From Sarea resinae (taxonomy: Eukaryota), in assembly GCA_026026165.1 (NCBI GenBank), contig JAPEUD010000024.1:1-64000 (forward strand): 64,000 bases of DNA, in the 5' to 3' direction. The notes below the pieces were generated by a model. The model searched no databases and was not told the DNA's origin. It saw only the letters and a list, made by a program, of their open reading frames with translations. The stretch's first letter is position 1; every line of letters begins with the position of its first letter. This document shows positions 42,056-46,772 of the stretch, piece by piece. A program made the position numbers and the translations under genes.

Positions 42056-44036
42056 ATGGCCCGTCAACGCTCCAAAAGAGCAGCACGAAAAGATGTCGCC
42101 GATCCTGAATCCGAGTCGCTGTCTGCGGATGAAGTCGAGAGAACCATGAGCGACGCCGAAAATGGTGAGCCGGCCGAAAAAGACGAAGTGGAATTGGAGC
42201 TAGAAAAGCTCGTCTTCGGAGATGAGGCCGGATTTCTTGAAGGGCTGAAGACGCATCCTTCGGGAGAGCTGGAGGATCTTTCTCAAGGTGGCAGCGAGGT
42301 AGAAGATCAAACAGATGAAGAAGCGGGAGGGCTGGAAGGTGTGGATGATGCCGACGTACGTTCATATTCCCACAATCTTTGCGTGGCCGCTGGAGACTGA
42401 GTATCAATTGCAGCTCTTCTTCCTAGATGCTGGCCCCTCAGCATCAACTCAAGATGCTCTAGTCCCCATTCCAACTTCCGATAGCGAGATTTCACAGCAA
42501 GGCGATGCACCGGCCTGGGAGGACAGTGATGATGAGCGCATGATGGTATCGCTAGTAGGAAATCCACGACTACGGAAACTCCGAGTGAGCGAGGCAGAAG
42601 ACCTTGTCAATGGTAAAGAATACACCAAAAGACTGCGACGACAGTGAGTATTCTAACACTTCCACCCAAAATTGTCGAGATCTTTCTCATCGCGTCCCTT
42701 CAGATTCGAACGGCTATATCCCGTCCCAGAATGGGCGAATCCTTCAGCAGCACGAAAGCCAGCCCGAAAGAAGCGTAGGACCAACTCCGAAGGCGCCAGC
42801 TCTTCAGGAGAAGAGAGCTCATCTGCGGACGAGATGGATGTGGAAGAGCAGCTATCAGCACAACCATTAGCTAAACTACTACGCAACGCCAACGATCTCA
42901 TCCGACAGCCCGAAGCCTCTCAAGGCAAACAAGGCAAGCTCCGTCCTGAGGTCATTGACATTCAACGGACCAAAGATGTTGGAGGCATACAGCCTGTAGG
43001 TTCCGTCGTCCGCTCACCCTAAGTTTCAAGCGCTAATCTCCTCTCGACACAGTCCGCAATCACCTCCCTCTCTTTCCACCCCTCCTACCCACTCCTTCTC
43101 TCCTCCGGCCCCGCATCAACCCTCTACCTCCATCACATCGCCCCCCACCCGCCGAATCCGAATCCCCTCCTTACTTCCCTTCACCTCCGTGCCACCCCTC
43201 TCTCCACTACCGCCTTCCTGCCCCCGACAGGCAATAAAATTTTCCTCTCCGGCCGCCGGCGTTACCTTCATACCTGGGACCTCCAAACCGGGCAGATTGG
43301 AAAGCTCACCCGCGTCTATGGCCACCAGGATACTCAAAAAACCTTTGAGCGCTTCAAACTGTCGCCCTGTGGCCGCTGGCTTGGTCTCGTATCGTCTGCC
43401 CGCAAAGGCGCAGGCTTGGTCAACATCCTCGACGCGAACACTCTACAGTGGATCGCGCAAGCGCGCGTCGAGGGCCGTGGCGGTCTCGCCGATTTTGCCT
43501 GGTGGTCTGACGGCCAGGGCCTCGTGCTCGTGAGCCACGCGGGGGACGTAGTCGAGTGGTCACTCGACGAGAGGCGGCTGGTAGGCCGGTGGCGCGATGA
43601 AGGCGCCGTGGGGACCACAGTGCTTGCTCTTGGCGGCAAGATCGCCGGCCCCAACGCTCTGGGTGGAGACCGATGGGTCGCCGTCGGCAGCTCGAGCGGC
43701 ATCGTCAACATCTACGACCGGCGCGCTTGGGTCTCTTCTTCCTCGGAGGTGTCCATCCCAGAGAACCCCAAGCCGACCCGCGCCCTCGACAATCTGACCA
43801 CTCCGATCAGCAACCTCGTTTTCTCTCCCGACGGCCAGATCCTCGCGCTTTCCTCCCGCTGGAAGCGCGACGCGCTCCGTCTGGTCCATCTGCCGAGCTG
43901 TACTGTCTACCGAAACTGGCCTACCAGCTCGACACCCTTGGGCCGCGTCACGGCTCTCGCCTTTTCCAACGTAGGTGGGTTATTGGCGGTGGCGAATGAG
44001 CAGGGCAAGATACGCTTGTGGGAGATTCGAGCTTAG
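42056..44036 (+). CDS. utp18: U3 snoRNP / SSU processome WD40 protein Utp18
   Basis: KDEVELELEKLVFGD; LFFLD; PAWEDSDDER...RLRKLR...EYTKRLRRQ|FERLYPVPEWA; KLRPEVIDIQR; SAITSLSFHP; LSGRRRY; AVGSSSGIVNIYD; DALRLVHLPSCTVYRNWPT...GKIRLWEIRA*. Three introns. Confidence 0.96.
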
Positions 44037-44114
44037 ATCTGCGATAAAAGCAACGGCGCGGTGATGGTTGCTGATGGGTGGCCTTGCGGAAGCCGTTGAT
44101 GATTCCCTAAGGCA

Positions 44115-44202
44115 TGAATGATGAGGCTAGGCTATGTATCCGTTCTTCATCGAAGCGAGCGCCGCATGGAAGTAGCACGGATGAGCGCTCGAACTCTGAT
44201 CA
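44115..44202 (+). ncRNA. candidate box C/D snoRNA with two 5.8S rRNA-complementary guides
   Basis: Box C ATGATGA 44118-44124, putative D' GCGA 44155-44158, C'-like GGATGA 44179-44184, box D CTGA 44196-44199, terminal TGA/TCA pairing. Guide CGTTCTTCATCGA (44141-44153) and guide GCGCTCGAAC (44185-44194) match conserved 5.8S segments recalled from memory. Confidence 0.5.
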
Positions 44203-45035
44203 AACGAAGCTATCTGGCCCCAGAGAGCCCCCCTATATCCCATACATGTCTATATCCCATGCCCCTCCATGCTTTCCTCATATGTGACGAGATCCAAAAA
44301 AGCCGAATCTACTCGTTGAGTCTTCCGTGAATGAATGTAACACCCTGGGCTACCTACCTACCTAGCAACGGTAATCCAAAACGAACCCTCTCCTTTCAAT
44401 CCCCGTTGTGTTAAACCAACCAGGCCAGGATACCTACTTATCTGACGAAATCTGCCGGGCGTTCATGGGAAAGTATGGGAAAGTGGGAATGAGCTCATGT
44501 GAATGCATCCGCTCGTGAGCACGACACCTACACAGCCGGAGACGTTGGACGAAAAAAGTTCCACAACTCGAAATCGAGGCTGGTGAGCGAGTGACACCCC
44601 GCTATCTCCCCCTCCCCCTCCCCCTACAAGCCCTGGAGAAAACCTAGAATATCAAGCGATCATACGGACGTCTATCTGAAAAAGAAGAAGAAGAGGAAGG
44701 GGATTGTCCATACGTTATGGTTTCAGGACGTAAATTGTCACCTCAATACATCGTAACAGATCAGTCATCCACAAGAAGTATTTGGTTTCCGCAGTAGATG
44801 TCGTTGCGTCTTGTTTTTTCTAGATAGATAGGCAGGATCATCGACCGTCTATATCGTCAAAAAATAGTGAAAATCAAAGAAAGCATGGCCCCCGAAAAAA
44901 AAAAAAAGGCGGGGGGGGGGGGGCACAACAAGACAGAAGAATTTTGTCTTCGGGAAAGTAAATGGCCGACTGGAAAAGATCCAGATCACACACAATACCT
45001 GTCCCTGCACCTCGAGCTTCGAATCGGGCCCTTGC

Positions 45036-46772
45036 TCAATCAATACCCTCGCTATGTCTCACACCAGCCATATTGCCCTCTTTGATCCGCTTGAGCGTTA
45101 ATGCCGCGATAAGTGCAGCGCCAACACCGCTACCATCCTCGGCGGCCCTCACGTCGATTAGGTCGCGCTTGCCCTTGGGCCAGTCTAGGATCTCGCGCAG
45201 GGCCTGAGCGCCGCGGGCCTTGAAGTGCGGGTACTTGTTGAAGACGGAGCCGTCGGCGCCGACGTGGCACGAGGTAATGTTCTTCTTCTTGCAGATGGCG
45301 GCGATGCCGCACGAGGAGAGACGCGCTGCGCGAGTACCGATGAGTTCGGCAAGGCGGCGGATAAGCTCGAGTTCGGGCTGTGTGGTAGAGAGGGAAAGAC
45401 GATTTTGAAAGAGGTCGGATGTTTCTGAAAGGTTCTCGAACGGGTCCCTGTACGCGATTGTGTTAGTCGACTTCTGCGTTGGAGAGACGGCCAAACACAG
45501 ATCTAGGGGCTTACTCTTCGATTAAAGAGAGGAAGGACGAGTCGAGGGTGTATGCCTTTCGGAGCTTGCTGATGTCCTGGCCCTCGAAGATGTGCACCTC
45601 CTTGTTGTCGTGGAGGTCGCAGAGGACCAGGCGGAAGATCTCGCCGAGATAGAGTCCCGCGATCATCTTCTCAAAGGCTTGTTGGCCTGGTCGCGGGGAG
45701 TCTCGGTCGACGATGATATCGTACTGGGTACGTGGGAGCACCTTGTGCTCATTATCAAACGCGCCCCATTCACAGTTGATGGCCATTGGCATATCCGCGG
45801 GAAGGTTCATGTGGGCCAATTTGGGTATCGAGCCGCAATTCTCCATGTACGCGGCGTTGCATCCAGTGCCGAAGATGCAGCCAATCTTCATTTGGTCATC
45901 GGTGTAGGCCGAGGCGATCAGAGTACCAGTTGTGTCATTGATCAAGGCAGAAAGTTTGATGGGTACACCCTTGAAAGATGTTAGAGAGGGAAATTATTGC
46001 ACAGAATTCCATCACTCACCCGCTTGGCTAACGCCTCCTCGAAAGGAACAACCACGTCCTTTCCTTCCACACCGTCAATGTCGAAACCTTTGGTCCATCT
46101 TTGCAGAATGCCGTGGTCGATGTACTCTTGTGTAGCTGGGAATGAGAAGGTGAAACCAAGATGGAGCTTCTCGAGCTTCTGGCCTTCGTGATGGTATTGA
46201 ATGAATTGCTGGAGACAGTCCGCAATGTACTCCCACAATTCCTCTGATGAGCCCGACTTGAGATCCTCTGGCATTCGGTATTTAGATTGGGTGATATCAA
46301 ACTCGCCCTTCTCTTCCGGGAGGTTGATCTCACAAACACGGAGGTTGGTGCCGCCCATGTCCAGAGCGAGAAATGTGCCGGTTTCGTATCCAGTTGGCAT
46401 GCTCATCACCCATGTAGGATTCATTGGCTGGATAAAGTTGGGTCAGCGATCTCCTGGGTCACATAGTCGGGACAGCTTACGATGCTCCCGCCCTCGACGC
46501 TCAGACCTGAGGACATGTTAGATTTCAGCCTTCACGATGCGATGCGACAGAAAGGTACCTTTCTCAAGCTCATGCACAAAGTGGTCGGAGATCTTCTTGA
46601 GGGTTGGCCCATCAACGGTGAAAAGTCGTTCGAGCTCCTGAATCTGTGCTAAAAGATCTTTTGGCACGTCGGCCATCGAACCTGTCTAATCGTGAGTCTC
46701 CATCCGCCATAAGTGTGAGCCAATGGACGTACCCTTCCGGGACGGTGGCTTTCTTGGTCCGAGTCCGACCAT
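45036..46772 (-). CDS. hxk: hexokinase (HxkA/Hxk2 type)
   Basis: MVGLGPRKPPSRKGSMADVPKDL; PMNPTWV; FLALDMGGTNLRV; LGFTFSFP...WTKGF; LINDTTGTLIAS; IFGTGCNAAY; INCEWGAFD; FEKMIAGLYLGE; GADGSVF...AEDGSGVGAA. Five introns. Confidence 0.98.

Follow-up and report, generated by a model that had tools for sequence, protein, structure and literature searches.

What kind of element occupies the interval behind the utp18 gene of Sarea resinae, and does it act on ribosomal RNA? A sequence-only reading of the 64,000-nt stretch of contig JAPEUD010000024.1 analysed here (the window) had proposed that a double-guide box C/D snoRNA directed at 5.8S rRNA is encoded there. The features from which that proposal was built are all present in the sequence at 44115-44202(+): a unit of 82 nt from box C through box D that lies about 80 nt behind the utp18 stop codon, ATGATGA as box C, CTGA as box D and a closing stem of TGA and TCA (Table 1). 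We take the unit most probably to be a new box C/D snoRNA restricted to its lineage, whose predicted sites in 5.8S rRNA are unreported. We favour, with modest confidence, the fuller reading in which it is a real, uncatalogued ascomycete box C/D snoRNA that is transcribed together with utp18 and targets 5.8S rRNA.

Table 1. Features of the candidate snoRNA and its surroundings (positions in the window; "relative" refers to a contig from a public RNA library)
Feature	Position	Strand	Evidence
Complete candidate box C/D snoRNA, 88 nt with its 3-bp closing stem	44115..44202	+	Sequence; covered by the relative's RNA-library contig
Terminal stem, 5' half, TGA, pairs with TCA 44200-02	44115..44117	+	Read from the sequence
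Box C, ATGATGA, fits the RUGAUGA consensus	44118..44124	+	Sequence; same in relative
13-nt antisense element CGTTCTTCATCGA	44141..44153	+	Complement of 5.8S U34-G46 (UCGAUGAAGAACG); same in relative
D' candidate 1, GCGA, preceded by a single A	44155..44158	+	Sequence and inference; same in relative
Segment CGAGCGC, perfect complement of GCGCTCG 44185-91 inside the D guide	44156..44162	+	MFE fold; -14.5 kcal/mol
D' candidate 2, TGGA (CTGA in relative: T44167C, G44168T)	44167..44170	+	Relative's contig
C' candidate, GGATGA, 5/6 match to UGAUGA; GAACGA in relative	44179..44184	+	G44180A, T44182C
D guide GCGCTCGAAC, followed by a single T before box D	44185..44194	+	Complement of 5.8S G144-U153; same in relative
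Box D, CTGA	44196..44199	+	Sequence; same in relative
Terminal stem, 3' half, TCA	44200..44202	+	Read from the sequence
Upstream block, unchanged in relative: second TGATGA 44097-102, third 5.8S complement 44096-105	44087..44114	+	
utp18 last exon, presumed host transcript	43416..44036	+	WD40 gene, Utp18 C-terminus alignments
Hexokinase gene (exons), convergent with utp18	45036..46424	-	Hexokinase_1 and Hexokinase_2, E 7e-56 to 7e-33

The unit has the anatomy of the box C/D class. Canonical boxes C and D are flanked by a terminal stem, which comprises only 3 bp. A spacer of 16 nt separates box C from the element CGTTCTTCATCGA, and a stretch of 20 nt lies between GCGA and GGATGA. Guides of this class have at least 10 nt and end 1-2 nt upstream of box D or D'; the D guide is of 10 bp, at positions 2-11. 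The spacer between the C' candidate and box D is 11 nt, which gives a 10-bp duplex and one unpaired base beside box D. The C/D RNPs of archaea and eukaryotes have this geometry. In the minimum free energy fold, the internal stem of CGAGCGC and GCGCTCG possibly masks the D guide, seven bases of which are involved; CGAGCGC is similar to the 5.8S target sequence, so the guide could be masked by its own RNA.

The block immediately upstream of the unit contains a 10-bp complement, with one G-U pair, to 5.8S GAAUCAUCGA. This block may be a precursor stem, a 5' extension, an alternative box C or a third contact with 5.8S rRNA. A longer form of the RNA beginning at the second TGATGA (44097) was considered and rejected; it has no adjacent terminal stem and would leave a gap of only 1 nt between D' and C'.

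The gene in front of the unit is utp18. The last 205 residues of its ORF align with Utp18 of Chaetomium thermophilum (5oql_N, 397-617/618; E 1.2e-77), and the same C-terminal residues align with yeast Utp18 (E 1.4e-50). The stop codon of utp18 (TAG, 44034-44036) precedes the unit by 78 nt. Because the hexokinase gene is convergent, the unit sits in the 3' region of utp18 without promoter-side intergenic DNA of its own, and utp18 is its sole obvious source of transcription. A 3'-UTR intron holding the unit was also considered. Intron-like signals are found nearby, with CTGAT at box D fitting the branch-site consensus and CAG at 44221-23 fitting a 3' splice site. There is no GTnnGT 5' splice site between the utp18 stop and the unit, and an RNA-library contig from a relative (described below) is collinear with the genome, so that such an intron is unsupported. 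Two other observations concern the DNA between the convergent genes. A run of 13 A, then GGC, then 13 G is found at 44895-44923, and the segment 44606-44884, downstream of hexokinase, is partly covered by contigs of a wood-decay metatranscriptome run. The latter is consistent with a hexokinase 3' UTR that reaches ~44606-44779 in the relative.

The pairing with 5.8S rRNA was evaluated on the 5.8S sequences of other fungi rather than on that of the host itself. A collection of prokaryote genomes was scanned with the reverse complements of both elements, placed 70-100 nt apart. Fifty-six loci were recovered, 20 of which are fungal rDNA contaminating bacterial assemblies, and 5.8S, 18S and LSU were confirmed by Rfam in all four of the rDNA loci tested. 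The 20 rDNA loci were chosen by a pattern requiring both motifs, and they therefore establish that such 5.8S molecules exist, not that the host organism has one. The bacteria-labelled assemblies with fungal 18S-ITS-5.8S-LSU rDNA are those of loci L100, L101, L106, L107, L109, L117, L118, L121, L122, L124, L126, L128, L129, L134, L136, L137, L143, L148, L149 and L152; several "NPDC" actinomycete isolates have one identical fungal ITS/5.8S in common.

On the Rfam-confirmed fungal 5.8S, the two pairings proposed in the sequence-only reading (13 bp, and 10 bp with one G-U) both hold. With 5.8S numbered from AAACUUUC, CGTTCTTCATCGA forms Watson-Crick pairs at 13 of 13 positions with UCGAUGAAGAACG (U34-G46; -19.8 kcal/mol). 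Beyond this element, after one mismatch, two further pairs are possible between GC at 44155-56 and 5.8S G31-C32, and the local alignment of the region to 5.8S matches at 15 of 16 positions. The D guide GCGCTCGAAC forms nine Watson-Crick pairs and one terminal G-U pair with GUUCGAGCGU (G144-U153; -16.2 kcal/mol); the base that follows GAGCG is U in 20 of the 20 recovered, pattern-selected 5.8S sequences. In both elements the first paired base is at position 2, counted upstream from an xxGA box, and both address the same 158-nt RNA. The D guide is minimal (10 bp, one G-U) and seven of its bases are open to pairing within the unit, both of which count against the snoRNA reading. A Eurotiales-type 5.8S (GUCCGAG) would mismatch it.

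The fifth base upstream of box D lies opposite the C of GUUCGAG (C147 in the same numbering). The D+5 arithmetic of the earlier reading is thus correct, pointing to this C and, provided that D' is GCGA, to the A of UCGAUG. That reading had also placed the target of the D guide in the 5.8S strand that pairs with the 5' end of 25S rRNA. Duplexfold, run on the 3' end of 5.8S and the 5' end of LSU, bears this out, giving -27.4 and -23.8 kcal/mol with CCUGUUCGAG paired. Neither element has an equal or better partner in 18S, ITS1, ITS2 or LSU 1-2571 of the recovered rDNAs. Nor is the unit an inverted copy of 5.8S, as had been argued from the order of the two matches: they are not collinear with such a copy, and the best local alignment between the reverse complement of the unit and 5.8S covers 16 nt, with a score of 27 that equals the maximum of 500 shuffles.

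How much of this could arise by chance differs between the boxes and the complements. A frame consisting of RTGATGA, a CTGA 50-160 nt further on and a 3-bp stem occurs once on the two strands of the window, among 39 RTGATGA sites. In block-shuffled windows, 0.29 such frames are expected per window, and at least one is present in 25% of them; the boxes alone are therefore not significant. Among 20000 shuffled versions of the 71-nt interior, 3 contained a perfect 13-nt match to 5.8S (1.5e-4) and 129 a D-adjacent duplex at least as good as that of GCGCTCGAAC (6.5e-3). The joint rarity of both complements, taken as the product of these two shuffle frequencies, is ~1e-6 per frame. It is the complementarities, not the frame, that are unusual.

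RNA-library evidence comes from one public run containing part of the stretch, the wood-decay metatranscriptome mentioned above, which is kept as contigs and was matched over 43000-45000. A 432-nt contig from a relative that is ~95% identical spans 43792-44214 without a break: it begins in the utp18 coding region, includes the whole unit and stops at 44214, 12 nt past the closing stem. As an assembly, this contig is silent on strand, RNA ends, size and protein binding, and DNA carry-over is possible. The segments 43000-43791 and 44273-44540 are uncovered in the same run, which is not evidence on RNA ends or on DNA carry-over, and 44885-45000 was skipped as a repeat when the run was matched to the window.

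Over the contig, the relative differs from the window by 17 substitutions and nine inserted bases. The coding part has eight substitutions, six of them at third codon positions, and 44037-44086 has four substitutions and a 9-nt insertion. From 44087 to 44214 the only changes are T44167C, G44168T, G44180A and T44182C. At the local rate, taken from third codon positions and UTR sites (10 of 132), these 128 nt should have 9.7 changes, and four are seen. The confinement of all four to 16 nt (44167-44182) has P 0.005, and the 80 nt from 44087 to 44166 without change have P 0.002. This one close relative is identical to the window in boxes C and D, in the stem and in both antisense elements, and the invariant sequence continues for 28 nt before the unit and 12 nt after it. 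That the comparison is with one relative only, at ~95% identity, counts against the snoRNA reading.

The substitutions in the relative bear directly on the proposal of a double guide. Both 5.8S complements of that proposal stand; its second guide rests on GCGA as box D', for which the CTGA of the relative is a rival. In favour of GCGA, the 13-nt duplex would occupy positions 2-14 upstream of it, mirroring the D guide at positions 2-11. Of the CUGA consensus, GCGA retains just the final GA; the relative has the same GCGA, and with this choice two of the four changes fall in the loop between D' and C'. The two adjacent changes at 44167-70 convert TGGA into a canonical CTGA situated 8 nt upstream of the C' candidate. 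Such spacing between D' and C' is typical. With D' at 44167-70, the 13-nt element lies 13 nt too far upstream for directing methylation; it would then be an accessory pairing like those shown to boost short guides (PMC3116282), or contribute to a chaperone function. With two candidates for D', methylation at the A of UCGAUG is only a possibility. As to C', the GAACGA of the relative possibly retains the GA-GA arrangement one base over; the two altered bases of C' and the rival D' count against the snoRNA reading. C'/D' boxes that diverge strongly can still function (PMC3116282).

A reading in which the unit is a real C/D snoRNA that uses D' at 44167-70, and in which 5.8S rRNA is not a methylation target or is hit by one element only, is unlikely but deserves to be weighed. 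Its true D' guide would be the adjacent GAAGCGAGCGCCGCA, aimed at the LSU 3' third, an snRNA or a tRNA, and the 13-nt element would be accessory or fortuitous. Besides the perfect CTGA of the relative, this choice of D' gains from the kink-turn geometry, which would allow TGGA, but not GCGA, a G-U pair with the guanine of C'. A target elsewhere would fit the mixed targets often predicted for snoRNAs of N. crassa and A. fumigatus (PMC2780460, PMC2377427). However, the segment beside 44167-70 has no conserved complement in 18S, 5.8S, ITS or LSU 1-2571, where its sole matches are of 9-10 bp in the ITS2 or LSU of single species, and a fortuitous 13-nt element is at odds with the rarity of the match (3/20000) and with its being unchanged in the relative. 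In addition, this choice would place all four substitutions in the C'/D' boxes and leave the intervening loop unchanged, an odd pattern if the boxes are functional.

A second alternative, to which we also give a low probability, is that the unit is not an RNA gene but a conserved utp18 3'-UTR or 3'-end-formation sequence in which the motifs occur by chance. The frame alone is expected 0.29 times per window, the conservation reaches beyond the unit on both sides, and the contig of the relative ends at 44214, as the 3' end of an mRNA might. The candidate was, moreover, chosen after the fact from a very large scan, and it has neither a homologue in the metagenome scan nor an Rfam family. Against this explanation stand the two correctly placed complements to the same 158-nt rRNA, at ~1e-6 per frame, and the pattern in the one relative, where boxes C and D and both elements are intact and the segment between them changes.

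The searches that bear on this alternative cover RNA families, metagenomes and contaminated assemblies. The comparison with Rfam foreseen in the earlier reading returned no clear family match to the unit: the Rfam 15 covariance models give no match at the gathering score in the 64-kb window. With permissive settings (E up to 10), only sub-threshold matches appear, to sno_ZL63 at the upstream block (19.1 bits against a threshold of 50; E 0.26) and to the archaeal C/D models sR21 (17.9 bits against a threshold of 45; E 0.97) and sR3 (E 7.3). Some Rfam models are presumably built on A. fumigatus (Afu) snoRNAs, and the models so built give no match to the unit even at E up to 10. In metagenomes, a pattern of box C, the 13-nt element and CTGA yielded 96 stretches with 97 regular-expression matches (L001-L096), none of which is a homologue. 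They group into families that resemble bacterial coding sequence; L046, the one most like a snoRNA, is part of a 135-aa ORF, and the eight loci compared with Rfam at E 0.1 have no match. Because fungal DNA is sparse in metagenomes and the pattern is strict, this null result says little. Within the contaminated bacterial assemblies, only chance matches of 14-25 nt to the unit were found in G001-G005, and Utp18 was found in none of the ten examined (G001-G010); the fungal contamination seems to be confined to rDNA. A literature text search with a 17-nt stretch of the unit found no match, and no report of a utp18-linked snoRNA was found in the literature; PMC8216456 does not mention UTP18.

Under the snoRNA reading preferred here, Pol II would make the unit within the utp18 transcript, either as 3' UTR or by read-through. 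Snu13, Nop58, Nop56 and Nop1 would assemble on the C/D kink-turn and protect the unit, and exonucleases would trim the flanks down to the particle, leaving a discrete RNA of ~88 nt. In pre-rRNA, the D guide would pair over 10 bp with the 3' strand of 5.8S before the 25S 5' end does, and fibrillarin/Nop1 would 2'-O-methylate the C of GUUCGAG (~C147). The 13-nt element would bind 5.8S at the conserved UCGAUGAAGAACG loop, serving as a D' guide that gives Am at UCGAUG if GCGA is D', or as an anchor for the short D guide. If this is correct, fungal 5.8S would gain as many as two new 2'-O-methylation sites, one of them in the strand that forms the 5.8S-25S junction helix, and the snoRNA itself would be specific to its lineage and an example of a C/D snoRNA located in the 3' UTR of a protein-coding gene for ribosome biogenesis. 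This would be a modest extension of a well-known class; a chaperone or timing role would raise its interest if shown.

Such a role is quite improbable in its plain form, a non-methylating assembly chaperone in which the C/D snoRNP would clamp two 5.8S segments as a mirror image of vertebrate U8, keeping the 5.8S 3' strand off the 25S 5' end until the right moment, when a helicase would release it. It draws on the location of the D-guide target in the strand for which pairing with the LSU 5' end is predicted, on the two, possibly three, complements to one small rRNA, on the poorly defined C'/D' boxes and on two precedents, U8, a C/D snoRNA needed for the maturation of 5.8S and 28S and described as unique to vertebrates (PMC8993069), and a Tetrahymena C/D snoRNA that affects 5.8S processing (PMC6315972); yet the D guide has textbook methylation geometry, 10 bp at positions 2 to 11 upstream of box D, and on the features seen a clamp is indistinguishable from an ordinary guide. 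A broader version is highly speculative as well. A utp18 3'-UTR C/D snoRNP of filamentous fungi might grip 5.8S at two or three places, one of them in the strand destined for pairing with the 25S 5' end, and time the formation of the 5.8S-25S helix. By analogy it might be a counterpart of U8 on the opposite strand, with or without methylation, and it would be produced in step with utp18 expression or with 3'-end formation of the utp18 mRNA.

Returning to the preferred reading of a 5.8S-directed snoRNA, the predicted sites can be compared with known 5.8S methylations. In N. crassa, 55 C/D snoRNAs have been catalogued, 45 of which are intronic, with no 3'-UTR member listed (PMC2780460). The single predicted 5.8S methylation there, Am42, is assigned to the D' guide of CD29 and is the one experimentally shown 5.8S methylation in a filamentous fungus, with a primer-extension stop at A43 (PMC2780460). 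The stop implies that the site is an A followed by an A, and it is therefore not the A of UCGAUG (PMC2780460). Arabidopsis has Am47 (snoR9), shown by RiboMeth-seq, and Gm79 (PMC8053127), and Gm74 is known in Drosophila 5.8S (PMC11014333). For A. fumigatus, snoscan predicted Am43 (Afu-294), Cm47 (Afu-277) and Gm75 (Afu-191) (PMC2377427). The sequence-only reading knew of no S. cerevisiae 5.8S methylation at its two sites. In the consulted text of the reports above, the reported or predicted 5.8S 2'-O-methylations of N. crassa, A. fumigatus, Arabidopsis and Drosophila all lie elsewhere, and none falls at the 5.8S 3' end. The consulted portions of the literature on yeast, N. crassa, A. fumigatus, Arabidopsis and Drosophila report no modification in the 5.8S strand of the junction helix. 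The lack of a known 5.8S methylation at either predicted site counts against the main reading. In the main text of the fungal snoRNAome, 5.8S appears only for pseudouridine predictions, and its supplementary lists may include this family (PMC5824354). Accepted targets are quoted in the same text at -11.6 to -18.8 kcal/mol (PMC5824354); the duplexes of the unit are at -19.8 and -16.2 kcal/mol.

Among known systems, the closest in target are N. crassa CD29 and Arabidopsis snoR9, C/D snoRNAs whose D' guide pairs with the same conserved 5.8S GAUGAAGAACGCAGC (PMC2780460, PMC8053127). Unlike them, the unit has no xxGA box five bases from either AA dinucleotide: the tetramers at the corresponding offsets in the GAAGAAC region are GAAG (44152) and ATCG (44149), neither of which ends in GA. 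CD29 also differs in being a 101-nt intronic RNA with a D guide that targets A31 of U2, a distinction drawn from its published description (PMC2780460). According to its authors, cognates of CD29 in other fungi are without the 5.8S guide (PMC2780460). The A. fumigatus RNA Afu-294 (AM921923) resembles the unit as an 85-nt C/D snoRNA with one predicted Cm and a predicted site in the same 5.8S region, Am43, and Afu-277 as an RNA predicted to guide 5.8S Cm47 (PMC2377427). In contrast to the unit, the Cm of Afu-294 is assigned to 26S C1851, and its gene belongs to a three-snoRNA intergenic cluster that is not behind utp18 (PMC2377427); no complement to the D guide of the unit was found in LSU 1-2571.

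Vertebrate U8 (SNORD118) is similar in being a C/D snoRNA that base-pairs with one strand of the 5.8S/28S junction helix. It differs in that the 5' end of U8 pairs with the 5' end of 28S and guides no methylation, and U8 is described as vertebrate-specific (PMC8993069). The unit, by comparison, has complements to 5.8S and a D guide with canonical methylation geometry. Finally, in the published cases of extra base-pairing in yeast and human C/D snoRNAs, the extra pairing adjoins the methylation site (PMC3116282), unlike the two 5.8S segments paired with the unit, which are 97 nt apart. The snoRNAs with the shortest guides carry such stretches, and in these RNAs, as may be the case for the unit, a second conserved antisense stretch stabilises a short guide (PMC3116282).
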